Origin: a virus
Lineage: Duplodnaviria; Heunggongvirae; Uroviricota; Caudoviricetes
DNA: 64,000 bases
Reading direction: 5' to 3' (one strand)
IMG/VR virus record: IMGVR_UViG_3300031414_000001
Location: 240,437 to 304,436 of that record
The notes under the pieces were generated by a model. It was not told the DNA's origin, searched no databases, and saw nothing but the letters and a program-made list of their open reading frames with translations. Every line of letters starts with the position of its first letter. Position 1 is the first letter of the stretch. Shown piece after piece: positions 33,629 through 48,237 of this stretch. A program made the position numbers and the translations under genes.

Positions 33629-33715
33629 GATAACTTCCTCTTAATTAATGGTTATTGCGTTTCAGTAAGTTCATTATATAGTACTCGCAGAAGAAAGCAA
33701 GTACTATTAATGGAT

Positions 33716-33952
33716 TTACAAAGAAATAACTTTGTGATACTCGCCATGCGTCAAATCAGACACATATACTTCATTGCTGTTATTCAGCTTTTCAGTACTG
33801 GTGATCACGTTGCCGTGATACGTTTCATTCGCCCAGGTTTGGATCTGCTGGCTGACTTCTTCCAGATTGTCAGATCCTGCCAGTACTAACAGTTTATCAG
33901 ATCCAGCAATCGCCGTGCCAGTACTGCTTACAATGACTTCGAATTGTGGCAT
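33716..33952 (-). CDS. hypothetical small protein (78 aa)
   Basis: Intact ORF. Confidence 0.4.
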   Translation of the reverse strand: MPQFEVIVSSTGTAIAGSDKLLVLAGSDNLEEVSQQIQTWANETYHGNVITSTEKLNNSNEVYVSDLTHGEYHKVISL

Positions 33953-34224
33953 GATATATCCTCTTAATTAAATTCAACAGACAACATTATAACAATAAAG
34001 ATAAACAAAAGAAACTCTACTTTACGACTCATTTCTTTACCCTCGTTTGCCCTTCCATGTAATACATATTACCAGATTCAAAAACAAAAGCAAGTACTTT
34101 TTATGATTTAATTTATAACTTTTTTTGAACGGATCTTGCCACCCTATAGGGTTAGTCAGTTTCGCCTGATTGATAACAGTATAGCAAAAAGGGATTGAAC
34201 TTGTCAACCCCTAATTTTAGTACT

Positions 34225-34530
34225 TTACAAATCACGCACCGCTGTAGTATGCGTAATGTATGGGGCAGAACCGCCGATCAATTCTACCTTTGCCATCAGG
34301 GATATATGATCCCCTGCTGTTGGTAATGCTAACGCTTCCTGTACTGTGATCACTTCACCGAAAGAGTACTGATATTGTACAAAGGCTAACCAGGTATTAA
34401 AGATCTCGCCCGGTTTCCATCCGTGCTGTACTAAGCACACATTATCAATTACAATCGGTTTACCTGTATGATCTCTCGTAGTACAGGTATAAGTAAATGC
34501 TTTCGCGAAGTTATCAATGTTATCAGACAT
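34225..34530 (-). CDS. hypothetical protein (101 aa)
   Basis: Intact ORF downstream of a conserved leader module. Confidence 0.45.
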   Translation of the reverse strand: MSDNIDNFAKAFTYTCTTRDHTGKPIVIDNVCLVQHGWKPGEIFNTWLAFVQYQYSFGEVITVQEALALPTAGDHISLMAKVELIGGSAPYITHTTAVRDL

Positions 34531-34771
34531 TTTCTAATGTTACCTTAAGAGATTGTGTCATACGATTTCGCATTGCTTTTAGTACCATGCGACACGCTAA
34601 CACTTTGCCTTTATCATCCAGACGTTTAAAGCCTGGCCGTTTCATTGTATGGGATTGTAATTGAGTCCAGTTATCGACCCTTTGCCCCTTGCGATAGATT
34701 ATACAATGAATCTTGTCAGAAGTACAAGTAAAAATTACAACTAATCTTTTAGTACTATAGAATAGATCCAT
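34523..34771 (-). CDS. hypothetical protein (82 aa)
   Basis: Intact ORF. Confidence 0.4.
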   Translation of the reverse strand: MDLFYSTKRLVVIFTCTSDKIHCIIYRKGQRVDNWTQLQSHTMKRPGFKRLDDKGKVLACRMVLKAMRNRMTQSLKVTLENV

Positions 34772-34819
34772 AAAGCCCCTACAACACGTTTTAAGAGGGG
34801 GTATATTGCCCCCTATAGG

Positions 34820-35197
34820 TTACACGTCTACAGTATCATAAACATTACCTGATGCGATCCAGACGCTGAATTTTGGCATCTTATCCCATTCAGCCATAGT
34901 CAGACCGAGATCGTGGAGAACGTTAGTATTTGCCATACCTGGTACATTGTGAGCAGTACTGTACAACTTTCCATTGTACTGATACGCTAAACACATTTTA
35001 TGCTGATTGACAACGCACAACATAGAAGTAATCAGGGTAGTACAGGCGAAACGTTCCCGTACTAATGACAATTCAGTACTGATGCGTTTATTCAATCTGT
35101 CAACTTCTTTATTACATTCAGCTTTTGTTTTCCCCATCATTTCGATATGGGAAAGTGCACCTACAATGTCAGCCTGGATTGTGAAGATCTTATTCAT
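34820..35197 (-). CDS. hypothetical protein (125 aa; start at MNKIFTIQ, AAAGGAGTAAACC RBS)
   Basis: The internal Met has an excellent SD. Confidence 0.45.
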   Translation of the reverse strand: MNKIFTIQADIVGALSHIEMMGKTKAECNKEVDRLNKRISTELSLVRERFACTTLITSMLCVVNQHKMCLAYQYNGKLYSTAHNVPGMANTNVLHDLGLTMAEWDKMPKFSVWIASGNVYDTVDV

Positions 35198-35388
35198 GGG
35201 TTTACTCCTTTCGTTTAGTGTGAATACATAGTAAGTCATTACAGCAGTTAAAGCAAGTACTATTTGAGTTTTAATTTATAATATTTTCTGGATAGATCTC
35301 GCCACCCTATAGGGTTAGTCCATTTCTCTGGAGTGATTACATAGTACTATAAAAGGGATTGAATAGTCAACCCCTCTTTTGTAAAGAT

Positions 35389-35571
35389 TTAAACTTCTTT
35401 CCAGCGTCCATTATAGAACGTATGCGTTTCAATATACATGTTGTTAATGTTGCTGATATATCCTACACTATCAGCAGCCCGCCGTGTAGCAGCATTCTTT
35501 GCCCCACGTTCGGACTTTGCCTGGATAGGGTAAGCCTTACTACCGATCCCGATTGCGTATTGTTTAGCCAT
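35389..35571 (-). CDS. hypothetical small protein (60 aa)
   Basis: Intact ORF. Confidence 0.35.
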   Translation of the reverse strand: MAKQYAIGIGSKAYPIQAKSERGAKNAATRRAADSVGYISNINNMYIETHTFYNGRWKEV

Positions 35572-35749
35572 GCTTCACCGCCTTGATTGCGTTAACCGCA
35601 ATAATTCCTTTACATTCGCGAGGCAAACGGCATTCACATAACCAACGGGAAATACCGCCAACATAACGAGCCGTAGGGCATTTGTTCGCGTTCTCCTGAG
35701 TGAACAAAGGCCATTCAACATTACCCCAGGTAGGTCTAACAGTTTTCAT
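35564..35749 (-). CDS. hypothetical small Cys-rich protein (61 aa)
   Basis: Intact ORF; CxxxxxxxxxC..CxC pattern. Confidence 0.35.
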   Translation of the reverse strand: MKTVRPTWGNVEWPLFTQENANKCPTARYVGGISRWLCECRLPRECKGIIAVNAIKAVKHG

Positions 35750-35826
35750 TTTTAAAACCTCGTTTGCTTAAGTGATAACTCATTGTAAAGTACTTGCCAG
35801 GATTAAGCAAGTACTTTCGAAATGAA

Positions 35827-36213
35827 TTATAGATCTTTTTTGCGTTTTACGTCTGCCAGGTTTTCAGATACTGGAATATCATGTTCACGACAAAAACGGG
35901 ATAACGTGCCACAATCAGGAACTGGATAAGTACAGGCAGCATCGAACAACGCCAGGGCAGTTTGATCGAAACAACGCTCATAGCCATATTGGAATGTATC
36001 TTGTGCCAGGTCGATCCACACTGTACCATCTTCTAACGGGCGATTGTACACGTTCGCTACAAGCTCGTTAGCACGTTCTACAGGCACCAGGACGCTAACA
36101 TATACAGAATGATATGTGTTACCATCACCACGGTTAAACCAGCGTTTCGCGGTCATAGTGACGGCGTGAACATCGGCCAGGTTAACAGTACTGAAAATAG
36201 TTCTATTGGTCAT
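35827..36213 (-). CDS. hypothetical protein (128 aa)
   Basis: Intact ORF. Confidence 0.45.
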   Translation of the reverse strand: MTNRTIFSTVNLADVHAVTMTAKRWFNRGDGNTYHSVYVSVLVPVERANELVANVYNRPLEDGTVWIDLAQDTFQYGYERCFDQTALALFDAACTYPVPDCGTLSRFCREHDIPVSENLADVKRKKDL

Positions 36214-36220
36214 AATAATC

Positions 36221-36391
36221 TCACTTAATGTTATTGGCTGCTACAAAGTCAGGGTGTTTAGATTCAAACCACTGCATGACTTCTATTCTATCAGTACCTA
36301 CACCGAAGTGCAAGAACTCTTTTTCGATTTCATCATCATTGTTAACGGGAACCAATGAGAACAATTCCCACAACTTCAATAACTCCGCCAT
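36221..36391 (-). CDS. hypothetical small protein (56 aa, below ORF-track cutoff)
   Basis: Reverse complement reads GGAGTAAACAGC-ATG MAELLKLWELFSLVPVNNDDEIEKEFLHFGVGTDRIEVMQWFESKHPDFVAANNIK. Confidence 0.4.
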   Translation of the reverse strand: MAELLKLWELFSLVPVNNDDEIEKEFLHFGVGTDRIEVMQWFESKHPDFVAANNIK

Positions 36392-36486
36392 GCTGTTTAC
36401 TCCTGAGTGATTACCCTATACCGCTTATTATACAGATTACTCATTTACGATCAAGTACTATCTCGTTTTAATTTACTTTATTTTAA

Positions 36487-36512
36487 AACAAAAAATGCCC
36501 CTCGATCTAGGG
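36487..36512. terminator. bidirectional-looking hairpin terminator (GCCCCUcgaucuAGGGGC)
   Basis: 6-bp GC stem flanked by an A-run upstream and an AT-run downstream. Confidence 0.45.
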
Positions 36513-37072
36513 GCATTAATTGGTGAATAAGGTTTCCTTTCAGAACGTCTATAATGGCACTAATGCGATTATAGAACTTCACACCTACGCGGCAATTTAA
36601 TATAAGTAGTTTGTTTATAAAATTGAGTACCGGATAATCTTTCAGTACTAACCACAATCACCCTGTAGATGTGCTTTCGCTTTGTGGTTCCTGGTATAGA
36701 CTTACCTTGTGTGCTATACGTCTTAGGGTTCTACGTACTGCCACCAGGATATCAGCCTGATGGTTCAAATCTTAACTCCTTTGGCGGCTCGCCGTGTCGT
36801 TTCGATGTAGCTATATTATCATAACCAGCGAACCGATCAAGCGATTTAATTACTTTTTTTCGATTCTTTTTCCTTGCTTTTCTTTTTCAGTACTGGCATA
36901 ATATCTACATACCAGCGAAATGGGAGACTCTAGAGAGTGGCAAGTTGCGTCTAAAATTTATATAAAAAGCAATGGACGGATCTTGCCACCCTTTTGGGTT
37001 AGACCATTTCGCTGGATTGATAGTACTTTAACATAAGGGGCTAACCGAAGTCAACCCCTGTTTTGTAAAGAT

Positions 37073-37414
37073 TTACATTGCTTCGATGACTAATTTTAAT
37101 TCATATGAACTAAAATGTTTCTTGAATAATTGTTCAGCCTGGGCTTTACTTTCGGCGTCAATTATGATTGAGTCTTCACCGCGATCCGTGCCGTAGGTTA
37201 TCGCGAACCCACGACGCACGATTTCTTTTGTTGGCAGGTGAATAGTACCGTTACGCAACAATTGCCCTTCTGGATCATTTGCGATTGCCTGGAGATCTAC
37301 TTCAACGTAAAGTTCATCGTTGAACAATTCCACAATCGGATCAATGTTCCCTCTTTTGTGTGCGATTTGTTCCAGTTGGAAAAGTACGCCTTTCAGTTCG
37401 CTTAATCTCATCAT
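37073..37414 (-). CDS. hypothetical protein (113 aa)
   Basis: Intact ORF. Confidence 0.45.
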   Translation of the reverse strand: MMRLSELKGVLFQLEQIAHKRGNIDPIVELFNDELYVEVDLQAIANDPEGQLLRNGTIHLPTKEIVRRGFAITYGTDRGEDSIIIDAESKAQAEQLFKKHFSSYELKLVIEAM

Positions 37415-37493
37415 TTTCGTTTTGCTCCGTTGGTTGGTGTGATTACATAGTACTATAAAGGGCTTGAAACAGTCAAGCCCTAAATTGTAAAGA

Positions 37494-38156
37494 TTATAAC
37501 TTTTCTAACGCTTCCTGAATCCGTTCCTGTAAGTTAGTCGTGACAATGTTTTCCAGTGTCAGATCGTCCGGGTAGTTAATATCTGAGTTTTCCAGTACTT
37601 CCCCCAGGGTTGGATCTTCCTGTACAATCAAGGCCGCCAGGTTAGGCCAAATTTGATTATACTCAAAATCCAGAACATCCCAGACGGCTTCCTGTACTGA
37701 ATCACGCCATTTCATTTCTGATAACGCAAGGTTATAGTAATGTTCATACATGGTAACAGTGATCGGCGTTTCCATCTTCTGGCGGTAGTACTGAATCAGA
37801 CGATCCACCAGCTTGATCCGGTTCGCACCGTGGATCGTGTCGTCGTCGTACAAGTTACGCTGAGCAGTGTACGCAATACGCATATGATCGCGATTGTCGT
37901 TACTCATACCCTCCACCGGATAGGCATTATCTAAGCCCATTTCTTCAAAGGCATCACACAAAAATTCCCAACCGATCCCTGTTATGTTGTGGTCCGGCGT
38001 TTTGGCGTATACATGCCAGCAAATGCCGAAAGAAGTAGTAAGGTTAAACGGCTTACCTTTAACATTAGTGTAAGTCTCGCCACGGTCTAAACAATCTTTC
38101 ATTTGTTCCAGTACTTCCAGAACCATTCTATATTGCTCTAACTTAAATAAGTTCAT
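37494..38156 (-). CDS. hypothetical protein (220 aa)
   Basis: Long intact ORF. Confidence 0.5.
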   Translation of the reverse strand: MNLFKLEQYRMVLEVLEQMKDCLDRGETYTNVKGKPFNLTTSFGICWHVYAKTPDHNITGIGWEFLCDAFEEMGLDNAYPVEGMSNDNRDHMRIAYTAQRNLYDDDTIHGANRIKLVDRLIQYYRQKMETPITVTMYEHYYNLALSEMKWRDSVQEAVWDVLDFEYNQIWPNLAALIVQEDPTLGEVLENSDINYPDDLTLENIVTTNLQERIQEALEKL

Positions 38157-38296
38157 TTTGTTTTCCTCTCGTTTCGATAAGTTCTATTATCCATATTCGA
38201 ACGAACTATGCAAGTACTAATTTACTTTTTTGATGCAAAAATAAAACCCCTTCTAAAACGCTCTGTAACGAGTTCTAAGGGGTTTTATATGTTAGC

Positions 38297-38566
38297 TTAT
38301 GCCTTTAATGATTCTGCGTTAAAAGCCCCGCTAATGGGCTTACATTGAAGATTTACGGCATAGTTTACTTTCTTGTGGATGATATACATACACGAATCAA
38401 ATTGATGATTGTAAGGCATATCATAGATCCGACGCTGTACCAGTACGCCACCAACTACAAAGGCAAGATAGCCGCTAAACTCCGCTGTATATCGCCCCGT
38501 CTGCGTCATTGTCTTTGCGATCCTGGTACGTGGATCAATCAGGTCTGAAATAGGTTTCAATTCCAT
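38297..38566 (-). CDS. hypothetical protein (89 aa)
   Basis: Intact ORF. Confidence 0.4.
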   Translation of the reverse strand: MELKPISDLIDPRTRIAKTMTQTGRYTAEFSGYLAFVVGGVLVQRRIYDMPYNHQFDSCMYIIHKKVNYAVNLQCKPISGAFNAESLKA

Positions 38567-38711
38567 AGGCGTTTACTCTCAATTAAAAGGTAGTCTAAAA
38601 CGCTCTAGGATCGATTCTAAGCGTTTCTAACAGTACTGTAACCCGATTGTATATCAGTACTGTTAGAACTGCTTAAGGGGGCATTTAGCCCCCTTATTTT
38701 ACGCCGTGGGA

Positions 38712-39410
38712 TTACTCGCCAGCGTTTTCGGTTTCAGCTTCGCTTTCGGCTTCGACTTTATACGCTTTGATAAAGTCGTCACGGTCAAGGCCGCTTTCAG
38801 ACAGAATCGCTTTGAGTTCGTTACCCATGTTACCTTTTACCGGCATATCGTACTGTTTGCCGTTGTATTCAACCGTTACACGGTCGTAGCTGTTTTTCGG
38901 CTCTGCGGCGGCTTTCAGTTTCGCTTTCGCACCAGCTTCGACGGCGGCTTTAGCCATTGTCAGATCCATGCCTGAATCGAGCAGCAGTTTCAGCATCGCT
39001 TTCTTTTCTTCTTCCATCGCGGCGTTGGCGGCGGCGGCTTCGGCTTCACGCTGAGCTTTCAGGGCGTTGCGGTTCGCTTCGCGGTCTGCTTTGCGTTTAG
39101 CGATGTTTTCCGCTTCACGTTCCAGGACAGCAGGGATCAGCGTTACAGTCGCAGACAGCAGGCGGGAAATGATTTCCACGTTGTCGGACTTGTCAACCAG
39201 GTAATCAGCCAGGGCAGCCGCCTGAGTGTTTACGAACGCCGTTACATCGCCTTCGAATTGTGCCAGTACTTCAGGGCTGTGCGACTCGCCTTCTTTCAGG
39301 GTAGCCAGTACCGGAGCAGACGCCAGCACAATGCTGTTCAGGGTTACTTTAGGAGCTTTAACAGCAGTTTCAACGGTAGCAGCAACAACAGTTTTGTTAG
39401 ACTTAGACAT
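38712..39410 (-). CDS. Ala/Glu/Lys-rich protein encoded on a GC-rich island (232 aa)
   Basis: Long ORF whose local GC is visibly higher (about 55%) than surrounding DNA. Low-complexity A/E/K repeats (AKAAVEAGAKAKLKAAAEPK). Confidence 0.55.
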   Translation of the reverse strand: MSKSNKTVVAATVETAVKAPKVTLNSIVLASAPVLATLKEGESHSPEVLAQFEGDVTAFVNTQAAALADYLVDKSDNVEIISRLLSATVTLIPAVLEREAENIAKRKADREANRNALKAQREAEAAAANAAMEEEKKAMLKLLLDSGMDLTMAKAAVEAGAKAKLKAAAEPKNSYDRVTVEYNGKQYDMPVKGNMGNELKAILSESGLDRDDFIKAYKVEAESEAETENAGE

Positions 39411-40379
39411 AATATGTACCTTCTTAAAAGTGATTGATTAATTTGTTTGTCTGATTCGCTCTTGCGTTTCAGTGATTACATCTTACTACGTTTCGTTTCT
39501 TTCGGTCAAGGACTTTTTCAACTTTCTAGAAACTTTTTTTCGTTTCATCTCCAGGCGGTAGATAGGACGCTAACAGTTAGTTAGCCTTTATAACGCTACG
39601 TTGCCTTTGTCGGTCATACGCTGTAACAGTACTATCTATTCTAGCCCTGTTACCGTTTCCTATCATCCGGCGAACCTTACCGCCTTTCGATGATTGACAT
39701 TCTACACTACTCAATCTAGCAGTCAAGTACTTTCTCAAATCTTTTTCGCGTTTCCGCTTAAGTCATTGTTTCAGTACTGAATGCCAGGTTTTTAAAGAGC
39801 GGTGTTTCGTGTCGTTGGAGCTATACTATCATACAGAACGAACCATGCAAGGACTTTTTCACTTTTTCATTAAAATAGTTTCGTTCCTCGCTTTCCTTCA
39901 TTATATGCACTTCCTGGTTCCTGTATCGAGTTCTAAGCCCTTTAACAGTACTAACATACACATTCACCAGGGATCGAACTACAAACGCTTAAACGGCTTT
40001 ATATTACGTATAAGGAAGGGCTAAAAAGTTTTGTAAAGATTGTAGAAAGTACTGGACAGCAGATCCCGAATAAGGCATAATAACTACATAGACGCGAGAA
40101 AGCGGAGACCCCAGGGGGTGGCAAGTTGCGTCCAAAATTCGTATAAAAAACTACAGACGGATCTTGCCACCCTCTAGGGTCGCCCATTTCGCTGGTGTGT
40201 GGATATAGTACTATAATCCGGCCAGGTCTGTCAAATTTATTTTTATTGAAAAAAGTACTTGCATTCGTCGCTCAGTATGATAATATAGCTCTGTCAACAC
40301 GAAAAGACAGCTTTCGATTCTGCCTGGTACTAACCAGACGCGGAAGGGGAGCTAATGGAAAAATGACAGAAAAAAACCA

Positions 40380-40520
40380 TTTAGCCGTCTAAACGTCTAG
40401 CCATCTAGACGGATAGCCATCTAGCCTTTTAGCCGTCCAGAAGGATAGCAGTCTATACGTCTATACATCCAGCTATCTACACTTCCAGAAGTCTATCCAT
40501 CTTCTGACAGCAGACGGGAT
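40380..40520. repeat. iteron-like array of about 10 direct/inverted copies of AGCC(A/G)TCTA / GTCTA(T/G)
   Basis: ttagccgtctaaacgtctagccatctagacggatagccatctagccttttagccgtccagaaggatagcagtctatacgtctatacatccagctatctacac... Confidence 0.6.
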
Positions 40521-40730
40521 TGATCCGTCTATCGAATACCAATACAGTACTGTAATTGTATCTGTATCTTGGACTCTCTCAATTAAAATTTAACAGTACT
40601 GACACTATACTCTCTAGGGTAATATCTACCGTACAAAAATATAATGCCAGTACTGTCGAAGTGCATCAAGTGCTACTCAAATACGCTTAGTACTCAATTT
40701 CCTAAGCAACGCAAGAAAGGAGGAAAAACT

Positions 40731-40802
40731 ATGAACACGAGGGTTCAAGTCACCAGGCAGTCTACACCAACCAGGCTAGGCTTCAGTACTGGCAGCTATT
40801 AA
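40731..40802 (+). CDS. 23-codon mini-ORF with perfect RBS (MNTRVQVTRQSTPTRLGFSTGSY)
   Basis: AAAGGAGG 7 nt upstream of ATG, inside an otherwise ORF-free 2-kb region. Confidence 0.35.
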   Translation: MNTRVQVTRQSTPTRLGFSTGSY

Positions 40803-41426
40803 CCACCTCCTGAACCATGTGTGTATATTACCGTACCACCAGCCAGAACGCAAGGACTTTCTTCAACTATTTTCATAATACTCTAGTACTGTAAATGTAT
40901 CCAGTACTGTACATATACACATGGGTGCTGGTGGTTCGAACTTTAGTTACAACATCTTATTCTATATTCTTTCGAAGATAGTCTAGTACAGAAATGATTT
41001 CGAGTACTATTGAGATTTAGGCTGGAGGTTCAAAGGTACTTCAAAATTTCTAGGATCGAGATTTAGGATAGAGTACTTTCCAGATTTTAGCTGAAGTGAG
41101 TTCTGGTTTTTTCAGTACTGAGATTTCCGTTCGACTTCAGGAACAGATATAGCGGAAGGGGGTTGACCAGTACTGGCAAGGGATGTTACAGTACTGGAGT
41201 GTACACTGTATGTATCTTCAGTACTGATAACTTATACATAATGTAGATTTTTACAGTACTGTATATTAATACATGGAATATCGCGAACGCTATTTTAGCT
41301 AGTTTGAATCCTTTCGATATCGCAATAGCGATACTACAGGAATCAAACACATGGCGTATAGAGCGTTCTAGGAGGTTCTAAGGGGTGTTTGAGATAGGTT
41401 TGTAGTACTGTTCTATATAGGTAAAG

Positions 41427-41438
41427 TGGGTAAATACT
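41427..41438 (+). promoter_or_regulatory. GGGTAAATAC motif (candidate late-type promoter) 33 nt upstream of first tagged gene
   Basis: gtGGGTAAATACtg. The same motif precedes genes at 47061, 48313, 59446 and (as GGTAAATTA) the SPFH gene. Confidence 0.4.
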
Positions 41439-41471
41439 GATAAGAATTTTTATTATAAGGAGATAAAAGGT

Positions 41472-43502
41472 ATGTTACCCTTTCCAATATTAAACTACTA
41501 TGGGAATAACATTGTACCTCCAGTAAAGACAATAGAAAGATTTTCAATATCCTCCAATGGTTCAGGAGTACTGTTACATTATGCTAATGGTGATTTATAT
41601 GCTTTAGGAACTAACACTGCTGGTAAGTTTGGTACAGGTGATACTACGAACATAACTGGTGCTTGGAGACTCATAGCTAGTAATGTACGTAAGTATGTAT
41701 GTTCTCATAACTTCACTATAATCATACACAATGATGGTTCAGTTCAGTACTCAGGCAATGTGAGTAATATTTTCACGTCAGCATTAGGATATTCATTTAG
41801 TACTACGAATGTGTTTACTGACATGAGTTCGGCGTTTAGTTCCTTTGATGTTCTAGGCATTAAGTCCTTAGAGTCTATGGAAGATTCAGGATATAGATTT
41901 TGGCTAATTGATAAGAATGATGTGTTATGGTGTATTGGTTCTAATCAGTACTACGCATTAGGTAGTTCTTCTAGTCTTACTACAACGAATTGGGTACAGG
42001 CAGTTAATGGTACTAATGTCGAAAGAGTTATGCCTGGATTACAATCAGTATGGATTAAGAAGAAAGATAATACGTACTGGAGAGCGGGAACTAATGCTTA
42101 TGGTTTATTAATGAGTAGTTCAGCTTCACAGACATATACGACATTTACTGTACAGAATTCATATGCCGGTACAGCGGCGAATAACACTATACGGAATCTA
42201 ACAGTAACTCCATACAACATGTATATGAATTTAGAAGACGGTTCAGTACGTATCTATGGTGTAAGAAACTCTGGTCAGACAGGTACAGGAAGCACAACTG
42301 GTACGGCATTGATTCCAGATAATCCATCGGGAACAAGTGGAGTTCTGAAGTTACTGGATAGTACTGGTTCGTTTTACAGTTCTTATTTGGTTGGGCCGAA
42401 TGGATTATTGGTAGCAGGTCAAGGTACTAATAACATGTTTGGTTTAGGTACGGGGGCATCTCCTACAACCTTTACGTTATCTAACACAGGTGTAATGACT
42501 AATTTAGATTATGCTAATTTAGATTACTTGAACTTCGTTACATCTAATGCTGGGTATGCTGTAATTGGTGGGGAAGTATATACTGCTGGTAATAGTGCTT
42601 ATACATTAGGTGCTACGTCATATATTACGTGGACATTGATGAATACACCACAGAGTCAGTTATGGGGAACATCAGGAATGGTTAGTACTATAACTAATGC
42701 TTCGACTACTTCTCCGACAATGACTAGATATTCTCACAGCAGATGTAGTTATGGAGATGATAAGTTCATTATCTATGGTGGATATAATGGTTCGACGATT
42801 TTTAATGATATTAACATTTACGATGGTACTACAGGAACGTGGAGTACTGTACCAGTGACGGGAACTACGAAGGCATTATTTGGTGCAGGTATTACTACTA
42901 TTGGTGATACGATGTATGTCTTTTGTGGTAACAGTACTACCTCGACTACGACGAACACGATTTATTCAGTTAATTTACTTACTGGAGATTGGACTACGAT
43001 TACGCCGAGTGGAAGTACTATAAGTGCTAGATCGCATGTACGGGCGTGTACTATAGGAACTATGATATACATATGGGGTGGTGAGAGTGTTAACACATGG
43101 TTCTCATTTAATCCGGTTACGAATGTAGTAGCTTCTATGCCTACATCGCCAGTAACATCTAGTATTGATGCGGATATGGTTACTGATGGTAAGGATATAT
43201 TTGTTAACATTGGTACTACGGCGTTTTACAAGTACAGTACTAGTAAAGCTGCTTGGATAGTACTAGCTAATAAGAATAATGCGGCATTGAAGCTCGCATA
43301 TAGTAATGGATATATCTATGGTTCTATGGCGGGGAATACATTCTTGTTCGCATATAAGGTCAGTACTAACATATGGACGCAATTACCTAATCCTTCATTG
43401 ATTAGTACTAGTCGTCATTGTTTAGCATCAGCGGCGGGTAAGGTTGTGTATACGGGTGGTATAGCTAGTACTAACAGCAATAACTGTTTTACAATAACAT
43501 AA
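41472..43502 (+). CDS. MLPFPxL-tagged RCC1-like + Kelch-like beta-propeller protein (676 aa)
   Basis: N-terminal tag MLPFPILNYYGN. RCC1-type GxNxxGxLGxG blades (GTNTAGKFGTGDTTN, GSNQYYALGSSSS). C-terminal Kelch-like blades (RYSHSRCSYGDDKFIIYGG, RSHVRACTIGTMIYIWGG). Confidence 0.75.
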   Translation: MLPFPILNYYGNNIVPPVKTIERFSISSNGSGVLLHYANGDLYALGTNTAGKFGTGDTTNITGAWRLIASNVRKYVCSHNFTIIIHNDGSVQYSGNVSNIFTSALGYSFSTTNVFTDMSSAFSSFDVLGIKSLESMEDSGYRFWLIDKNDVLWCIGSNQYYALGSSSSLTTTNWVQAVNGTNVERVMPGLQSVWIKKKDNTYWRAGTNAYGLLMSSSASQTYTTFTVQNSYAGTAANNTIRNLTVTPYNMYMNLEDGSVRIYGVRNSGQTGTGSTTGTALIPDNPSGTSGVLKLLDSTGSFYSSYLVGPNGLLVAGQGTNNMFGLGTGASPTTFTLSNTGVMTNLDYANLDYLNFVTSNAGYAVIGGEVYTAGNSAYTLGATSYITWTLMNTPQSQLWGTSGMVSTITNASTTSPTMTRYSHSRCSYGDDKFIIYGGYNGSTIFNDINIYDGTTGTWSTVPVTGTTKALFGAGITTIGDTMYVFCGNSTTSTTTNTIYSVNLLTGDWTTITPSGSTISARSHVRACTIGTMIYIWGGESVNTWFSFNPVTNVVASMPTSPVTSSIDADMVTDGKDIFVNIGTTAFYKYSTSKAAWIVLANKNNAALKLAYSNGYIYGSMAGNTFLFAYKVSTNIWTQLPNPSLISTSRHCLASAAGKVVYTGGIASTNSNNCFTIT

Positions 43503-43511
43503 GGAGAGAAT

Positions 43512-44612
43512 ATGTTACCATTTCCAATAATGAATCAGTACGGTAATGAAGTAGTTTATCCTGATGTGATAAAGAAGCTCAGTACTGGTCAGAACAACAC
43601 AGGGTTATTAAAAACTAATGGTGATTTTTACATACAAGGATTAAACAACGTAGGGCAAAGTGGTACAGGTAATACTAATGATGTAGTTAACTTTACTAAA
43701 GTGGATTCTGGTGTTGCTGATATTAGTGTAGGGTACAATACTTCCTTTTATAGAAAAGGTACTAACCAGATAATGGGTACTGGAGTTTTCAGTTATATAG
43801 ATGGAACAGTGCAAAAGAATACATGGACACAAATCAATTCATTGTTTACATCACTTAGTGTATCTTTTGAATTATTTTTAGATATAAGAACAAGTAGTTC
43901 AGGTTTGTTCGTATTGTACAATGGAAATTATTTGTACTGTCGTGGTTCAAATACAAATGGTGATTTAGGTGTTACTTCGAACACTAGTACTTGGTCATTA
44001 AGTGCTACTGATGTAAAGGAAGTTCATTGTGGGTATGAGTGTAGTTACATATTAAAGACTAATGGTGATTTATATGCTTCAGGTACTAACAGTAGGGGGC
44101 AATTAGGCACAGGTAATACTACTCGTTCAAATACTTGGATACTAATACAGCAGAATGTATTACAAGTTTATGCTGGTTTTTATAATCTAATCATTGCTAA
44201 GAGTGATGGGCTATATGGTGTAGGTGCTAGAGAGAATGGATTGTTAGGTGATGGTTATACCAGTTCAACAGCATCAAATCAATTAGGTTTTGTAAAATTG
44301 AATATTCCCAATGGAAGTTATAATTTAGGACGCGGTTTCATTTACAGTTCAGGAAACGCGGTACTGGATACTGGTGTTGCTTATGTATCTGGGGTTAATG
44401 CTGCGGTTGGTGGTGCTGGGGCGAATAATGGTTTATTCACACAAGCACAAGGAACATTACCAATGAACTTAAAAGGATTAAATTTAATGGCTAATGGTAT
44501 ATTAGTACATGATGGTACGGATATATGGGGTTCTGGTAATGGACGATTACTACCTGGATATGGTTCAGGAACTTATACAACCTTTGTAAAATGTACAATG
44601 CCAACTACATAA
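43512..44612 (+). CDS. MLPFPxL-tagged RCC1-like beta-propeller protein (366 aa)
   Basis: Tag MLPFPIMNQYGN. Repeats GLNNVGQSGTGNTN, GSNTNGDLGVTSN, GTNSRGQLGTGNTT, GARENGLLGDGYT. Coupled via TAAGGAGAGAAT-ATG. Confidence 0.75.
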   Translation: MLPFPIMNQYGNEVVYPDVIKKLSTGQNNTGLLKTNGDFYIQGLNNVGQSGTGNTNDVVNFTKVDSGVADISVGYNTSFYRKGTNQIMGTGVFSYIDGTVQKNTWTQINSLFTSLSVSFELFLDIRTSSSGLFVLYNGNYLYCRGSNTNGDLGVTSNTSTWSLSATDVKEVHCGYECSYILKTNGDLYASGTNSRGQLGTGNTTRSNTWILIQQNVLQVYAGFYNLIIAKSDGLYGVGARENGLLGDGYTSSTASNQLGFVKLNIPNGSYNLGRGFIYSSGNAVLDTGVAYVSGVNAAVGGAGANNGLFTQAQGTLPMNLKGLNLMANGILVHDGTDIWGSGNGRLLPGYGSGTYTTFVKCTMPTT

Positions 44613-44622
44613 GGAGAGACAG

Positions 44623-45129
44623 ATGTTACCTTTTACACAATTATTGGTTTATGGAAATACTGTAATTAGAAATGAATATAATATGTTTGTTTCTGAATTA
44701 ACTTCAAATAGTACAAATAAGTCCGTAGTTTATAATCAATCATACAGTGCTATAAATGGAACTACATATAATAGAGTTTATATGTATAGTACTGCTGCAC
44801 TATCAGGCACATTATGGGGAACACCATATGGTAATAAAATGACATGGGATAGTTCATTTTGTAGAGTTATACAACATGCGTTTCCTACCCAGGCATTATA
44901 TAGTGATTTTATTGCTAATCCTGGTAATCGAGTTGTATGTTTAGTTCGTTCAGCAACGGCGAGTGGGAGTGGGTATGTATCATTATCCAGAAATGGATAT
45001 ACAAGTTCATCATATGGATCATTTACTGGTTGTACTGTAACACAATTTATATATTTTGATCCTGTTACACAACGTGTTATGACATATAATCCTAGTACTG
45101 TTAGTACTCCAACATTTTATTACACATAA
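44623..45129 (+). CDS. MLPFxQL-tagged small protein (168 aa)
   Basis: Tag MLPFTQLLVYGN; TAAGGAGAGACAG-ATG coupling; no propeller repeats. Confidence 0.6.
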   Translation: MLPFTQLLVYGNTVIRNEYNMFVSELTSNSTNKSVVYNQSYSAINGTTYNRVYMYSTAALSGTLWGTPYGNKMTWDSSFCRVIQHAFPTQALYSDFIANPGNRVVCLVRSATASGSGYVSLSRNGYTSSSYGSFTGCTVTQFIYFDPVTQRVMTYNPSTVSTPTFYYT

Positions 45130-45140
45130 GGAGAGAATGG

Positions 45141-46307
45141 ATGTTACCATTTCCACAATTATTAGATTACGGGAATACTGTTGCTCCACCAGCACCAATT
45201 AAAAAGATACAAACATATTCGAACTCAGTATATGTTTTAATGTCCTCTGGACAATTATATGTTCGTGGATTTAATAGTTCAGGTCAATTAGGTATAGGAA
45301 GTACAGCAACAGTAACCACATGGACATTGAGTACTATACTAGTAGATGATGTATGGGTTGGTGGTAGTGCGGCTTTAATACGTAAAATGGATGGTACTTA
45401 TCAATTCACTGGCAATAATACAAATGTAGGAAATGCTAATGGAACCAGTACTACAACATGGGCTACATGGACTGTTAAGAATACATTAACATCAGGAATA
45501 GTAGATATTGCTTTGAGTTCTCAAAGCATTAGTGTACTGTTAGAAGATGGAACTATTAAGTCGGCGGGTGTTGGTACTAATGGACAGTTAGGTAATAATA
45601 GCACAACAAACAATATAGCTGGTTCTTTTGTAAACAGTACTATACCGAGTGGTATTACACCTGTTTCATTACTGGCTGGTAATACGATGCATGGATTCAT
45701 TGGGAACAATGGTAAGTTGTATCATACTGGTATGGTTAATGCTACTAATACTGTTAGTCCCGGTACTACAACATATCTGGTATATACATTGAATCCAGCT
45801 ATTGGTACTAATACTGCTTTATCATACATGAATAACGCTAATGGATTAGCTATGGGTTTGATTAGAACTCCAGCTAATGTTGTTCGAATGTATTTTGGTG
45901 GTTCAAGAATATTTGGTCAAATGGCAGATGGGGTTAATGGGAACTTATCTAACATTAAAGCTTTTGGTGATTTTACTGGAACTCCATATCCATCAGGAAC
46001 TATTCTTGGTGTAAGTACTGGTTATTCGTATTATGCTCAGATGGTTATTACGAGTACTGGAATATTTGCGGCGGGTCGTAATACTGGAGATCAGTCTGGT
46101 GCTTTAAGTACTGGAATCGCATCAGAAGCATTGACCTATACAGCATGTGTATTACCATCTAGTTTTGATACTACTAATGCGAAAGTACATATGTGTTTAA
46201 GCAGAACGTACTTAACTGATGGTAATTATCTGTATAGTTCAGGTACATATGTTACTTATGGTGGTCCAAGTAGTACTACGTTTACATTAGATGATCCAAG
46301 ATTTTAA
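45141..46307 (+). CDS. MLPFPxL-tagged RCC1-like beta-propeller protein (388 aa)
   Basis: Tag MLPFPQLLDYGN; repeats GFNSSGQLGIGSTAT, GVGTNGQLGNNSTTNN. Confidence 0.7.
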   Translation: MLPFPQLLDYGNTVAPPAPIKKIQTYSNSVYVLMSSGQLYVRGFNSSGQLGIGSTATVTTWTLSTILVDDVWVGGSAALIRKMDGTYQFTGNNTNVGNANGTSTTTWATWTVKNTLTSGIVDIALSSQSISVLLEDGTIKSAGVGTNGQLGNNSTTNNIAGSFVNSTIPSGITPVSLLAGNTMHGFIGNNGKLYHTGMVNATNTVSPGTTTYLVYTLNPAIGTNTALSYMNNANGLAMGLIRTPANVVRMYFGGSRIFGQMADGVNGNLSNIKAFGDFTGTPYPSGTILGVSTGYSYYAQMVITSTGIFAAGRNTGDQSGALSTGIASEALTYTACVLPSSFDTTNAKVHMCLSRTYLTDGNYLYSSGTYVTYGGPSSTTFTLDDPRF

Positions 46308-46317
46308 GGAGAGAGAA

Positions 46318-46971
46318 ATGTTACCATTTCCACAATTAGTTCAGTACGGTAATGTTGTTCAGACCGCATTGATGGATATTGATTTTAATAATAGTACTGT
46401 TGGTAGTACTGTAATTACAGATATTGGTGGACATGTATTCACTAAGATTGGTACAGGTTCAGCGGTAGTAGTTAATGATGCTACAAAGGGGAATGTGATG
46501 CAATTCAGTGGTTCATCATATTTTACAACACCTATGGTTCAAAATATATCTTTAAGTAATTTACATTTCAAGATGCGATTAGTATTCAAGAGTACAGTGT
46601 CATCTGAGAACATGGTATTCAGTACTGGAGATTATTATTCTAGTGGTTCAATAGTAGGTGGTATATTGCTTACCTTATTCAATAACACTGGTTCTCAATT
46701 ATTCTGTACTACAACATCTGGTGTATTCACTCGTTGTCAATTCACATATGTAGTTAATACATGGAGAGATTTAACGATAGAATGGATACCTACAACAAAG
46801 ACAATGATTATACATGATAATGATTCTAACACTAACGTGTTTAGTGGTACTGTTCCTGGTGGATTTGGTGATGGTACACAATTTGCGATTGGTGCTAGTT
46901 ATGTTCGTGGGGCTGGTAATGCTAATTTCCAGGGACAAATACAAAAAATACGTATTGATGCTGTACTATAA
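46318..46971 (+). CDS. MLPFPxL-tagged ConA/LamG-like lectin-fold protein (217 aa)
   Basis: Real start at MLPFPQLVQYGN (the track ORF starts 27 nt earlier). C-terminal ...FAIGASYVRGAGNANFQGQIQKIRIDAVL resembles the LamG/ConA-like F.G.I.E.RI signature. Confidence 0.65.
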   Translation: MLPFPQLVQYGNVVQTALMDIDFNNSTVGSTVITDIGGHVFTKIGTGSAVVVNDATKGNVMQFSGSSYFTTPMVQNISLSNLHFKMRLVFKSTVSSENMVFSTGDYYSSGSIVGGILLTLFNNTGSQLFCTTTSGVFTRCQFTYVVNTWRDLTIEWIPTTKTMIIHDNDSNTNVFSGTVPGGFGDGTQFAIGASYVRGAGNANFQGQIQKIRIDAVL

Positions 46972-46983
46972 TAGTACTCAAAT

Positions 46984-47012
46984 AAAGCTCAACTTAGGTT
47001 GGGCTTTTATTA
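46984..47012 (+). terminator. rho-independent terminator (AGCUCAAC-UUAG-GUUGGGCU + U-tract)
   Basis: Hairpin followed by TTTTATTATTTT. The same CAAC-UUAG-GUUG hairpin type recurs at 48238 and 61806. Confidence 0.6.
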
Positions 47013-47060
47013 TTTTCGTGGGTAAATACTTAATTAATATTTTAAAAAAAGGAGTTTCTA

Positions 47061-48236
47061 ATGTTACCATTTCCAATATTAAATCAATACGGTAATGAAG
47101 TAGAAGTGCCAGTAGTAAAGTTTACAACATCTGAATATAGTTCAACCTATTCTATTCTTAAGAATGGTGTTCTATATTTGAGTGGGGATAACTCAATGTA
47201 TCAGATGGGTGATGGTACAACCACTAACAAATATAATACATGGATTAAAAGAACTGAAACAGAGGAAATAATAGCTTGTAGTACTGGTTATCGTCAAACA
47301 GTATATGTTACTAAAACTGGACGAGTTATGTTAACTGGCACAGATATAACAGTGAATCCTAATGTGGTTCGAACATCGTGGTATAATATCACATCAGTAC
47401 TAGCAAGTGCTATAGATACAAGTGCTATCAAATACATTAGCATAGATCGTAATGGTTTATTAGCTATTCTTACAGATGGTACAGTATGGGGTACTGGTAC
47501 TGATAATAGTGGATGGATGGGAACTGGTTCAATACCTTCAGCGTTCTTATCAATGCGTCAGATACATCCAGGTCCAGCAGTAGCATGTACAGCGGGTACA
47601 GGTGTAGCTCGAATAGTACTACAAGATGGTACAATTTTAGGTTCAGGTAATAATACATCGTATCAAATAGACAGTACTGGAGTTAATATCAGCACCTTTA
47701 CTAATTCATTCCCTACAGTAGATCCTAGTACAATATATCAATTTAAACTTGGTAATAATAATTGTATTGTCTTTTTAAACAATGGAACATTTCATAGTAC
47801 TGGTATGGGTTCTTTTGGAGCATTAGGAAATAATAATACAGCTTCAACTGGCAATAATCAGTACTACACAGGAACATTATCATTTACTCCTGCTGATATG
47901 CGACAATATCGACATTTACAAGGTTCAAGTGCTAGTGGATGGTCATTAGTATTATCAAGCACAAATGAAATGTATGGTTGTGGTTATAATGGTGGAAATT
48001 TAGTATCTAACAGTGTACACTATGGTGTGTTTACTAAATGTGTACAAACGAGTACATATCCTAATATGATGTTTTTATCTGGTTCAGGAAACACAGTACT
48101 GATAAATCCATATCTAATTTCTCCTACTTCAGTACAACTTATTGCCAGTTCTCCTAAAGCTACAAGTCCATATGCTCAATCATTAACACCAGCATTAGGG
48201 CTTACTACTGCTGTTACGGTTACATTACCAACATAA
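47061..48236 (+). CDS. MLPFPxL-tagged RCC1-like beta-propeller protein (391 aa)
   Basis: Tag MLPFPILNQYGN; repeats GDNSMYQMGDGTTTN, GTDNSGWMGTGS, GMGSFGALGNNNTAS. Preceded by terminator + GGGTAAATAC motif (47030-47039). Confidence 0.7.
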   Translation: MLPFPILNQYGNEVEVPVVKFTTSEYSSTYSILKNGVLYLSGDNSMYQMGDGTTTNKYNTWIKRTETEEIIACSTGYRQTVYVTKTGRVMLTGTDITVNPNVVRTSWYNITSVLASAIDTSAIKYISIDRNGLLAILTDGTVWGTGTDNSGWMGTGSIPSAFLSMRQIHPGPAVACTAGTGVARIVLQDGTILGSGNNTSYQIDSTGVNISTFTNSFPTVDPSTIYQFKLGNNNCIVFLNNGTFHSTGMGSFGALGNNNTASTGNNQYYTGTLSFTPADMRQYRHLQGSSASGWSLVLSSTNEMYGCGYNGGNLVSNSVHYGVFTKCVQTSTYPNMMFLSGSGNTVLINPYLISPTSVQLIASSPKATSPYAQSLTPALGLTTAVTVTLPT

Positions 48237-48237
48237 G

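Follow-up and report, generated by a model that had tools for sequence, protein, structure and literature searches.

What is a 2-kb stretch without genes doing in a phage genome, at the very point where the direction of the genes changes? The stretch (positions 39420-41471) lies in a 64,000-nucleotide piece of DNA, hereafter the window, whose source is a Rak2-like jumbo phage sharing approximately 91% identity with Erwinia phage Kaldavass and XbC2. An earlier note had described it as an ORF-free switch region between leftward early genes and rightward genes, and proposed that its repeats make it a regulatory and origin hub. The explanation that we favour, and consider likely as a whole, is that the region is the junction of the two ends of a linear jumbo-phage chromosome, i.e., a non-coding control region at the left end, which the window shows joined to the right end, the arrangement expected of a concatemer or a circularised assembly.

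The lack of genes itself was borne out. The longest ORFs in the region encode 71 aa (GTG start, 39809-40024), 65 aa (GTG) and 62 aa (ATG), and none is conserved, each being broken by stops or frameshifts across five aligned relatives, while nucleotide conservation peaks in blocks carrying stops. Both sequence and conservation indicate that the first 1.74 kb of the chromosome has no gene; in vB_Ec-M-J, the first gene starts at position 1760 within its direct terminal repeat (DTR). The region was non-coding in all nine aligned sequences (eight relatives and a metagenome contig, from three genera), and its replacement by ordinary genes, which the earlier note had envisaged for a related phage, was seen in none of them. 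Coding sequences are annotated here in Kaldavass (nine 'hypothetical proteins', automatic) and in GAP32, and one short frame follows a strong Shine-Dalgarno sequence:

40731-40802, plus strand: mini-ORF of 23 codons behind AAGGAGG, absent in CBB and GAP32

Nevertheless, it is most improbable that the region encodes several very small proteins, this one included, as no ORF of 30 aa or more is intact in all five relatives, most being interrupted in several of them, and the mini-ORF is frameshifted in Kaldavass, at 91% identity. The mini-ORF had been reported earlier together with an AGTACT cluster; both exist, but the mini-ORF lacks conservation and is unlikely to be a gene.

The positions at which related phage chromosomes end point to what the region is instead. 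The features concerned are as follows:

22773-41149, no strand: putative DTR of 18,377 bp, indicated by homology and by shifts in GC content and skew
41132-41162, no strand: terminus block, CGACTTCAGGAACAGATA and TAGCGGAAGGGGG meeting at the predicted terminase cut, the left DTR boundary, at 41149/41150

The repeat would run leftwards from 41149 to 22773 (18.4 kb), its termini being placed purely through homology. The termini of CBB, XbC2 and vB_Ec-M-J, together with the start of the BF record, all map to 41149/41150. The annotated 22,456-bp repeat of CBB ends between AGGAACGGATA and TAGCGG, homologous to this position in the window, and the XbC2 record, with a DTR of 17,581 bp, begins at the matching nucleotide; these termini derive from read depth in CBB and from a PhageTerm analysis in XbC2. 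The start and end of the BF record meet at the equivalent position, its start perhaps having been set by analogy with CBB. At the far boundary (minus strand, CCAGTAATGCT followed by TAGCACCC at 22773/22772), CBB, XbC2 and vB_Ec-M-J agree to within 1 nt. Furthermore, the 31-bp block spanning the cut is conserved in eight phages, and the DTR differs in composition from its flanks, with GC content and skew shifting at approximately 22-23 kb and 41 kb.

Related sequence is present at both DTR boundaries, as expected of one nuclease, in the form of an inverted (C)GCTA^ just outside the repeat. The left boundary reads CCGCTA^ in the window and CBB, and the right boundary GTGCTA^ in the window, TCGCTA^ in CBB and CCGCTA^ in XbC2. 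The two copies in vB_Ec-M-J, GTCACTAA^AG and GTCGCTAA^AG, are identical at 9 of 10 positions, with CTAA^ at both ends as against CTA^ in Mimasvirus-like phages, in which the motif is short (4-6 nt). We infer that the packaging nuclease cuts at 41149/41150, and it would recognise the site through the short (C)GCTA^ motif, inverted, just outside the DTR at both boundaries. The long terminal repeats of K-like staphylococcal phages are likewise bracketed by short inverted sequences exactly at both repeat/unique boundaries. There they are 12-bp inverted repeats, whereas the motif here, (C)GCTA^ or GTCRCTAA^, is shorter at 5-9 bp and is positioned immediately outside the repeat, in an unrelated phage family.

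On both sides of the cut, and beyond it, further elements were found:

40546-41260, no strand: AGTACT cluster, with sites to the left and right of the cut
41303-41348, no strand: invariant palindrome GTTTGAATCC-TTTC-GATATCGC-loop-GCGATAC-TAC-AGGAATCAAAC, 155-200 bp outside the DTR
41431-41436, plus strand: TAAATA late-promoter-like motif, approximately 35 nt ahead of the start of the RCC1/Kelch gene (41472)

The AGTACT cluster has 14 sites in 710 bp from 40546, the maximum for the whole window (mean 3.2, s.d. 1.9), and CAGTACTG lies 12-19 nt outside the cut in four phages. LexA boxes were considered as the source of the cluster and rejected: TACTG-N10-CAGTA occurs three times, which is close to the number expected from AGTACT abundance alone (estimated at approximately 1.3). 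Our literature search found no report of AGTACT in jumbo phages. The palindrome sits in a conserved block (41253-41350) with 91.6% identity to CBB, for which late-promoter motifs of the TAAATA type have been described. Positions 41150-41471 would be the last unique DNA together with the leader of the late RCC1/Kelch gene. Identification of the region as a DTR/unique junction explains the divergent gene orientation here without an internal switch: what had been taken for a switch region appears to be the right end of the unique sequence meeting the left end of the DTR at 41149/41150.

Within the repeat, the region holds seven predicted sigma-70-type promoters, five directed inward (40860, 40234, 39857, 39733 and 39516) and two outward (40053 and 40259). 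Their -35 and -10 hexamers lie 16-18 nt apart and are accompanied by an A-rich upstream element; the hexamers form conserved islands in the alignment, while the spacers diverge. A plain consensus scan returned 17 promoter-like sites against 10.8 ± 3.4 expected, and the promoter calls are therefore based on conservation. Five of the promoters, with two further elements, are:

39480-39509, minus strand: early promoter P39516, TTGACC-18-TAAGAT, with an A-rich UP element; hexamers conserved in five phages
39699-39726, minus strand: early promoter P39733, TTGACT-16-TAGAAT; conserved hexamers, predicted to drive the RNA E1
39823-39850, minus strand: early promoter P39857, TTGCAT-16-TGaTAGTAT, the repeat block ggagctatactatcatacagaacgaacc...gcaaggactttttc of the earlier note
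40259-40286, plus strand: outward promoter P40252, with UP element, TTGCAT (40259-40264), 16-nt spacer and TGaTAATAT (40278-40286)
40294-40374, plus strand: conserved leader of P40252, with a covarying hairpin CTGG/CCAG
40684-40708, no strand: small conserved hairpin GCTTAG...CTAAGC (GTTCAG...CTGAAC in BF)
40825-40853, minus strand: terminus-proximal inward promoter P40860, TTGCGT-17-TAATAT, approximately 300 bp from the chromosome end

P39516 lies directly upstream of the first DTR gene (38712-39410), and both hexamers of P40860 are kept in five phages. P40252 had already been picked out as a plus-strand extended -10 promoter (TTGCAT-16-TGaTAATAT); it is conserved in Mimasvirus and Eneladusvirus, and vB_Ec-M-J has an equivalent, TTGACA-17-GATAAT. 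The hairpin in its leader changes to CTAG/CTAG in BF and Yen9-03 and to GGGG/CCCC in vB_Ec-M-J, and an SD-like GGAAGGGGAG with an ATG in the leader heads a cistron of variable length (2-14 codons). The repeated blocks observed earlier are also real (D8, 39507-39544 and 39848-39885; I2, 39805-39859 and 40250-40304; I4, 36797-36831 and 40268-40302), and they correspond to the -35/UP and extended -10 parts of the predicted sigma-70 early promoters. Host RNA polymerase would start at the inward promoters once the left end enters the cell, and the early genes of the DTR would be transcribed from them, much as T7 is transcribed from its left end. The CBB paper describes promoters of the RpoD-like type with UP elements, some of them on the repeat, and in the distant relative PA5oct the DTR is transcribed early by host RNA polymerase.

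The two outward promoters also bear on whether the region is merely a long promoter or 5' UTR of the first rightward gene, the RCC1/Kelch gene. Both point right, and 41472 could be within reach of their transcripts in two settings, a concatemer and the right-hand DTR copy. In the left-end copy, however, such transcripts run off the chromosome at 41149; moreover, the RCC1/Kelch gene has a late-type motif and a ribosome-binding site of its own within 40 nt of its start, and the majority of the promoters in the region face the opposite way. We therefore give this reading very little credence.

The remaining two promoters form part of the palindromic composite element that the earlier note had listed; it is present, with arms at 40078-40132 and 40156-40210 and a second copy at 36901-37015:

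40053-40134, plus strand: outward promoter (TGGACA-17-CATAAT) and leader unit CGC-GAGAAA-GCG, ACCCC-AG-GGGGT, GGCAAGTTGCGTCC
40154-40234, minus strand: inward promoter (TTGACA-18-TACTAT) and leader unit CCA-GCGAAA-TGG, ACCC-TAGA-GGGT, GGCAAGATCCGTC, T-run

The palindrome thus appears to be a convergent promoter pair, with a covarying 5' leader hairpin module downstream of each member. In relatives, the counterpart of the 40053 promoter is the canonical TTGCAT-17-TGgCATAAT. The module occurs in eleven copies in the window, all within the DTR, where it also recurs between genes. Across 38 distinct copies the unit keeps a fixed distance from its promoter, starting approximately 9 nt past the -10 element in 38 of 38. 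Its hairpin P1 showed 48 double-sided compensatory cells against 13.3 expected, a value that 0 of 500 shuffles reached. The 3' helix of the unit is rich in G-U pairs, which indicates that the sense strand is the folded one. Such 5' structures would stabilise or mark early transcripts. An intrinsic terminator was rejected as an account of the palindrome, since its long hairpin lacks a T-run on either strand; a T-run follows only the short 3' helix of the minus-strand leader unit. No Rfam family matched the leader units or the palindrome at the gathering threshold, and only generic hairpin (miRNA) matches appeared, far below it. Phage lambda nut and HK022 put are promoter-proximal RNA elements, small hairpins at the start of early transcripts. 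The leader units are likewise promoter-proximal hairpins with a purine-rich loop on early transcripts, in an early region punctuated by intrinsic terminators. However, the hexaloop here is G(A/C)GAAA, and an N-like protein and boxA were not among the features found; we regard the likeness as a resemblance only.

A second structured RNA is predicted downstream of P39733:

39545-39696, minus strand: E1, structured RNA of approximately 150 nt, showing covariation; its 5' and 3' ends pair to close a multi-branch fold

E1 begins 2-3 nt after the predicted start site of P39733, which probably drives it. Among seven sequences, 10 of its 43 pairs carry compensatory changes and 98.3% of cells are paired; 0 of 500 shuffles reached the observed value, and slid controls gave 0-1. 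The minimum free energy was -54.2 kcal/mol (z -5.4) for the minus strand versus -45.6 kcal/mol (z -3.8) for the plus strand. Rfam scans of the region returned no match to E1, and tRNA/tmRNA scans nothing relevant. E1 is known from eight closely related genomes and one metagenome contig: wider sampling by a scan of IMG/VR recovered known isolates only, and among 22 contigs from a metagenome scan, one, 95-98% identical to the window, carries E1, the others being chance matches. The covariance comparison with related genomes that the earlier note had called for found compensatory changes in E1 and in leader hairpin P1, and the regulatory half of its hub proposal is upheld by the seven promoters with conserved hexamers and these two kinds of RNA structure.

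The most consequential item of the region is a tandem repeat located between the convergent promoters P40252 and P40860:

40375-40502, no strand: 16 phased 8-bp boxes, 14 above the single-box threshold, matching the MetJ metbox consensus AGACGTCT

The repeat, listed earlier as an iteron array, has a strict 8-bp period (autocorrelation 0.50-0.52 at lags 8, 16 and 24, versus approximately 0.2 elsewhere) and is unique within the window. The repeat itself stands, but its reading as iterons is not supported; it matches the MetJ matrix. According to the criterion of Augustus & Spicer, a MetJ operator has at least two adjacent 8-bp boxes, each with at least a quarter of the consensus bits, and a site total of at least the consensus bits. 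In the array, boxes occur in a single register as runs of 8, 4 and 2 (58.6, 28.5 and 14.1 bits, approximately 101 bits in total), and these are the only predicted MetJ sites in the window. For comparison, the E. coli metJ/metB and metF operators scored 31.2 and 24.9 bits and shuffled windows at most 17.5 bits, and 0 of 20,000 randomised-consensus arrays of equal periodicity reached the score of the array. The array is present in Kaldavass, XbC2, CBB, GAP32, BF, Yen9-03, vB_Ec-M-J (14 boxes, 105 bits), 121Q and a metagenome relative. No metbox array was found in the first 3.1 kb of the record of Salmonella phage Munch, so the array is not universal in the wider group.

We infer that the array consists of 16 tandem predicted boxes for host MetJ. 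In E. coli, met operators are tandem 8-bp metboxes bound cooperatively by MetJ with SAM; the array shares their period and consensus, passes the published thresholds, and has the strings CGTCTAAACG and ACGGATAG in common with the metF operator. There are clear differences. The array has 14-16 boxes, as against 2-5 in host operators, and whereas host MetJ operators overlap or adjoin a methionine-regulon promoter, typically within approximately 75 bp of the start codon, the array sits in a phage terminal repeat, at +77 to +205 from the predicted P40252 start, with no promoter overlap and no met gene nearby. Half of its boxes have C at position 3, a tolerated but suboptimal base. Hosts of the relatives are Erwinia, Pectobacterium, Cronobacter, Serratia, Yersinia and E. 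coli, and the MetJ-regulon paper covers the genus of each; the host reported for XbC2 is Xanthomonas, a genus absent from that paper. Our literature search found no metboxes in phages, and a MetJ-box array in a phage has, in the literature searched, not been reported before.

An origin role for the region, the other half of the hub proposal, is not supported. Here, the repeats would be iterons for an initiator, activated by transcription from a flanking promoter, as in the transcription-linked activation of T4 oriF/oriG and lambda ori. The repeats do lie downstream of a strong promoter, in an array unique in the window, and the cumulative GC skew has its minimum at approximately 41 kb. But this minimum falls precisely where the coding strand switches and the chromosome ends, the period is 8 bp rather than the 17-22 bp of iterons, and the array is not AT-rich and adjoins no AT-rich unwinding element. 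No Rep-like gene is adjacent, the neighbours being of unknown function or the RCC1/Kelch protein, and the MetJ matrix accounts for the boxes. We regard an origin here as improbable.

Somewhat less unlikely, though still doubtful, is that the array is recognised by a phage protein, such as a ribbon-helix-helix regulator or the small terminase subunit, and is merely metbox-like, serving as a packaging/terminus-recognition site or a phage operator. Its distance from the terminus is conserved (approximately 650-780 bp in the window, with similar values in the relatives in which it was measured), its boxes are consistently asymmetric (AGCC on one side, GTCT on the other) and overlap no promoter, and tandem arrays of 7-8 bp are typical of cooperative ribbon-helix-helix binders (ParG/parH, omega). 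On the other hand, the match to the MetJ matrix is far above that of a generic 8-bp repeat and above authentic operators. No ribbon-helix-helix or MetJ Pfam domain was detected in 86 small ORFs (64 kb of approximately 360 kb), and no MetJ homologue in 50,697 phage records. Furthermore, known terminase recognition sites are usually closer to the cut than 650 bp.

If the boxes are instead read by host MetJ, the SAM-bound repressor would coat the array. Since the array exceeds every host operator in size and is copied along with the phage, its most likely effect would be to soak up MetJ and derepress methionine and SAM synthesis; alternatively, it would act as a SAM-dependent roadblock. With two copies in each virion chromosome, and more as replication proceeds, the array would be a sponge of 14-16 MetJ boxes in the terminal repeat that titrates MetJ and switches on the host methionine/SAM pathway (metA, metE, metF, metK and others), a proposal that we advance tentatively, as a possibility.

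The left end and concatemer junction of the T7 chromosome offer a parallel for the region as a whole. The end of T7 is non-coding, with strong tandem host promoters directed inward before the first early gene; arrays of short repeats accompany the terminal repeat, and the unique DNA has a palindrome just before the right-hand repeat. Similarly, the end examined here would have a non-coding terminal stretch (0.9-1.7 kb across the two phages), inward host promoters, an array of short repeats close to the terminus and, in the adjacent unique DNA, a palindrome. In contrast to T7, the repeat is 18 kb rather than 160 bp, there is no sequence homology and no phage RNA polymerase, and the repeats match a host repressor site. 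Closer at hand, the DTRs of Rak2-like phages (CBB, XbC2, vB_Ec-M-J and, more distantly, PA5oct) are homologous in sequence, with boundaries at the same nucleotides, and are packed with small early genes preceded by RpoD-type promoters that carry UP elements. Published accounts of them stop at repeat length and promoter lists, and in the literature searched we found no description of the gene-free first 1.7 kb, the bracket motif, the leader modules, E1 or the metbox array.

Our analyses thus place, by homology, the true chromosome ends of this phage and provide a first nucleotide-level picture of the conserved, gene-free terminal 1.7 kb of Rak2-like jumbo phages, with a candidate cut-site motif, a battery of predicted early promoters and two structured-RNA families (E1 and the leader modules) that are absent from Rfam and backed by compensatory changes. 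If MetJ does bind the array, an operator three to four times the size of any in the host would let these phages sense the host's methionine/SAM metabolism or rewire it, a new way for phages to manipulate host regulation. Were the sponge proposal true, it would feed a very large phage that encodes several SAM-dependent methyltransferases, and the regulatory takeover would be the work of non-coding DNA rather than of a phage protein.

The ORF-free 2 kb at 39420-41471 matched Erwinia phage Kaldavass at 91% identity (96% query coverage) and Xanthomonas phage XbC2 at 91% identity, with weaker matches to CBB, GAP32, BF, pEa_SNUABM phages, fHe-Yen9-03/04 and E. coli Asteriusvirus phages; given these matches, the window was assigned to a Rak2-like jumbo myophage. 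The scarcity of ORFs described in the earlier note was borne out: the longest reach 71, 65 and 62 codons, and once five genomes are aligned, each ORF of ≥30 codons proves to be interrupted by a stop or frameshift in at least one relative, mostly in several. A mini-ORF at 40731-40802 is without conservation. Every repeat class listed in that note was found in its place. XbC2 (OP292654), whose reported host is Xanthomonas vesicatoria, is as similar to the window over the region (~91%) as the Erwinia phage Kaldavass, and its DNA was left uncut by two restriction enzymes although sites for both are present. Furthermore, 86 small ORFs of the window were compared with Pfam, giving one match each to a Dam-type N6-adenine methyltransferase (5e-28), a pyrimidine-dimer glycosylase (3e-15), a ParE-like toxin domain (3e-11) and a cytidylyltransferase-like domain (4e-8).

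From homology, we infer that the region is the chromosome terminus of the window's own phage. In CBB, a 22,456-bp "redundant repeat" was annotated from two-fold read depth and PFGE; its end falls within the homologous gene-free region, at ...AGGAACGGATA^TAGCGGAAGG, and the counterpart in the window is ...AGGAACAGATA^TAGCGGAAGG, between 41149 and 41150. The direct terminal repeat (DTR) of XbC2 (17,581 bp) was classed as "T5 type" by PhageTerm and the record re-oriented to begin there; its first base aligns with window position 41149. The BF record starts at the same nucleotide as the XbC2 and CBB terminus, and its two ends, when joined, reconstitute the conserved sequence. The far repeat boundary maps to the same homologous position in CBB as in XbC2, and is at most 1 nt off in E. 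coli phage vB_Ec-M-J. It corresponds to the junction of 22773 and 22772 in the window, which would give a DTR of 18,377 bp (22773-41149). G+C content is 0.40-0.45 within this inferred DTR versus 0.35-0.39 in its flanks, and skew also differs. Eight phages share a conserved 31-bp block that spans the left cut, and directly outside the repeat at both boundaries lies a short inverted motif ending at the cut:

Window: left CCGCTA^, right GTGCTA^
CBB: CCGCTA^ and TCGCTA^
XbC2: CCACTA^ and CCGCTA^
vB_Ec-M-J: GTCACTAA^AG and GTCGCTAA^AG

The additional A in vB_Ec-M-J is present at both ends together, as predicted if one nuclease recognises both boundaries. K-like staphylococcal phages have a comparable inverted-repeat pair at their LTR boundaries. 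The distance between the end and the first repeat gene is 1,740 bp in the window and 1,760 bp in vB_Ec-M-J, so that conservation of the gene-free leader extends across genera. Around the far boundary (22700-22900), the minus strand reads ...CTAAAGGCCAGTAATGCT^TAGCACCC, a sequence kept in CBB, XbC2 and vB_Ec-M-J, and TTGACT-type promoter-like sequences immediately inside the boundary point into the unique region. GC skew is near zero across the left half of the inferred DTR. The nearest relative found, a 19.8-kb environmental contig (Ga0153956_1001543; 95-98% identity to 34772-42436), continues uninterrupted through the DTR boundary.

The cut is flanked by the window's densest 710 bp of AGTACT, starting at 40546; seven phages maintain a density of 10-17 sites/kb there, even beyond alignable sequence. 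In four phages, CAGTACTG is positioned 12-19 nt outside the cut. In P1 pac, methylatable hexamers help mark the packaging site, and the AGTACT cluster may do likewise. AGTACT is also the top hexamer of the window as a whole (291 observed versus 21 expected, a 14-fold excess). Long ORFs contain 156 sites, which occupy all three codon phases (88/26/42), whereas synonymous-codon shuffling yields 37.7 ± 5.3; sites within genes include those at 41567, 41746 and 41799. These counts indicate DNA-level selection for the palindromic site genome-wide, and this excess needs an explanation separate from that of the packaging-site cluster. A LexA-box architecture (TACTG-N10-CAGTA) occurs three times (40887-40906, 32826-32845 and 26033-26052; 0.08 expected from shuffles), approximately the number that the AGTACT excess alone would yield; the site corresponding to 40887 in CBB and GAP32 has CTG-N10-CAG boxes.

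The repeated blocks "gtcaaggactttttc" and "ggagctatactatcatacagaacgaacc" correspond to the UP/-35 and extended -10 parts of minus-strand sigma-70 promoters. A search with the pattern A-rich UP, AAAGTACTTGC, 16-18 nt spacer and -10 gave matches on the minus strand at 23.7-40.9 kb, i.e., within the DTR. The promoters predicted in the region, inward (leftward into the DTR) or outward, are as follows:

40825-40853, minus strand, predicted inward promoter
40205-40234, minus strand, predicted inward promoter
39823-39850, minus strand, predicted inward promoter
39699-39726, minus strand, predicted inward promoter
39480-39509, minus strand, predicted inward promoter
40053-40081, plus strand, predicted outward promoter
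40259-40286, plus strand, predicted outward promoter

A plain consensus promoter scan alone was not significant (17 sites versus 10.8 ± 3.4 expected). In alignments with relatives, the promoter hexamers stand out as conserved islands amid diverged spacers. The CBB authors described the same promoter class, with some copies on the repeat, and host polymerase is responsible for early transcription of the DTR genes of PA5oct. At 40052-40075, the outward unit promoter carries a substitution patch (TGGACA...AAGGCATAAT) where Kaldavass, XbC2, CBB and GAP32 have the canonical CTTGCAT...CAGTACTGGCATAAT, and it may be weakened in the window's phage.

Downstream of such promoters we found a leader unit, with 38 distinct copies in the window and eight relatives by motif search, every one following a -10 element at a distance of ~9 nt. 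It comprises a 3-4-bp hairpin (P1) with loop G(A/C)GAAA, then ACCC-N3/4-GGGT and GGCAAGATCCGTCC. The P1 stems include CCA/TGG, CGC/GCG, CAG/CTG, TGCG/CGCA, GGAG/CTCC, CGA/TCG and CAAA/TTTG, and their covariation is strong (48 double-sided changes versus 13.3 in shuffles; 0/500 shuffles as high; slid controls low). RNAalifold added a proposed G-U-rich 3' helix that is unable to form on the opposite strand. The leader unit therefore belongs to the transcript from the adjacent promoter. All 11 units in the window lie inside the DTR:

32759, 36915 and 40096, plus strand, leader units
40192, 37012, 35328, 34165, 28534, 27289, 26103 and 24073, minus strand, leader units

In each of the long palindromes (40078-40210 and 36901-37015), a plus-strand unit faces a minus-strand unit, so that the palindromic element consists of two convergent promoter-leader modules. 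The leader unit could shield the 5' end of the transcript or serve as a mark for protein binding, for instance a nut-like site; every gene of the early region ends in an intrinsic terminator. Some gene ends carry C(UUCG)G-tetraloop hairpins (GGGGTTGAC-TTCG-GTTAGCCCC) flanked by an A-run and, on the opposite side, a T-run (37036-37067, with equivalents at ~24100, 27320, 28570, 34200 and 35380). They include the TTGAC -35 of the following leader-unit promoter, and terminator and promoter thus overlap.

Downstream of the minus-strand promoter at 39699-39726 lies E1, a 150-nt element (39545-39696, minus strand) conserved far above its flanks, with a predicted multi-branch fold closed by its own ends. 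Among 43 consensus pairs, 10 show compensatory changes in only seven sequences, with 98.3% of cells paired; 0/500 shuffles matched the observed values and slid controls gave 0-1. Folding energy favours the minus strand (-54.2 kcal/mol, z -5.4) over the plus strand (-45.6, z -3.8). E1 had no match in Rfam, and matches to its covariance model were confined to the window, Kaldavass, XbC2, CBB, GAP32, BF, Yen9-03 and one metagenome contig. Judged from these sequences, E1 is a new structured RNA.

The 8-bp repeats at 40375-40502 keep a strict 8-bp period and, in the right register, read AGCCGTCT, AAACGTCT, AGCCATCT, AGACGGAT and onwards; the metbox consensus of the MetJ repressor is AGACGTCT. When the whole window was scored with the half-metbox weight matrix at the thresholds published for it, only three runs emerged, all in one register and all within the array:

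40375, MetJ-box run of 8 boxes, 58.6 bits
40447, MetJ-box run of 4 boxes, 28.5 bits
40487, MetJ-box run of 2 boxes, 14.1 bits

The two boxes separating the runs fall marginally under the single-box threshold. On 6 kb of E. coli K-12, the same script recovered exactly the known metJ/metB (4 boxes, 31.2 bits) and metF (4 boxes, 24.9 bits) operators. Shuffled windows reached at most 17.5 bits, and among 20,000 arrays of the same periodicity with randomised consensus, none attained the observed 101 bits and 0.3% attained 50 bits. The array recurs in Kaldavass, XbC2, CBB, GAP32, BF, Yen9-03, 121Q and the metagenome relative, and in vB_Ec-M-J as 14 contiguous boxes scoring 105 bits. Array, outward promoter and leader make up the best-conserved block of the region, at ~93% identity between the window and CBB versus ~65% in the flanks (by eye). 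Save for that reported for XbC2, which carries the same enterobacterial-type array, the relatives' hosts belong to genera within the MetJ-regulon study. No phage in the searched collection encodes a MetJ homologue, no ribbon-helix-helix Pfam domain was detected in the 86 small ORFs, and our literature search found no paper describing metboxes in phages.

Host MetJ probably binds the array, an estimate tempered by the fact that the boxes overlap no promoter and half have a suboptimal C at position 3. The most natural consequence would be titration, in which the array soaks up MetJ during replication, because the 32 boxes per chromosome roughly equal the total of the whole host regulon. Alternatively, the array could act as a SAM-dependent roadblock between the convergent promoters at 40259-40286 and 40825-40853.

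Right of the cut, block 41253-41350 shows 91.6% identity to CBB and contains an invariant palindrome (41303-41348) whose inner stem varies with complementarity kept. It lies in unique DNA just ahead of the right-hand repeat copy, a position that recalls the inverted repeat of T7, which is implicated in terminal-repeat duplication. The rightward genes (41472-53654) are a series of RCC1/Kelch beta-propeller paralogues, each beginning ATGTTACC.TTTCC (MLPFP...), with CBB homologues annotated as virion structural proteins. Short repeats occur at their junctions (BLAST matches at ~45.1, 46.3, 50.4, 51.1 and 51.8 kb), and a late gene signal precedes them:

41431-41436, TAAATA motif (late gene signal) upstream of the RCC1/Kelch gene

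The earlier reading is partly right: the region as a regulatory hub encoding non-coding RNAs stands, whereas its origin role is unsupported, the "iteron array" reading as MetJ boxes, and the chromosome terminus had been overlooked. Terminal control regions of DTR phages are a known kind, to which this one belongs; what is new in it, and merits experiments, is the metbox array, E1 and the leader modules.
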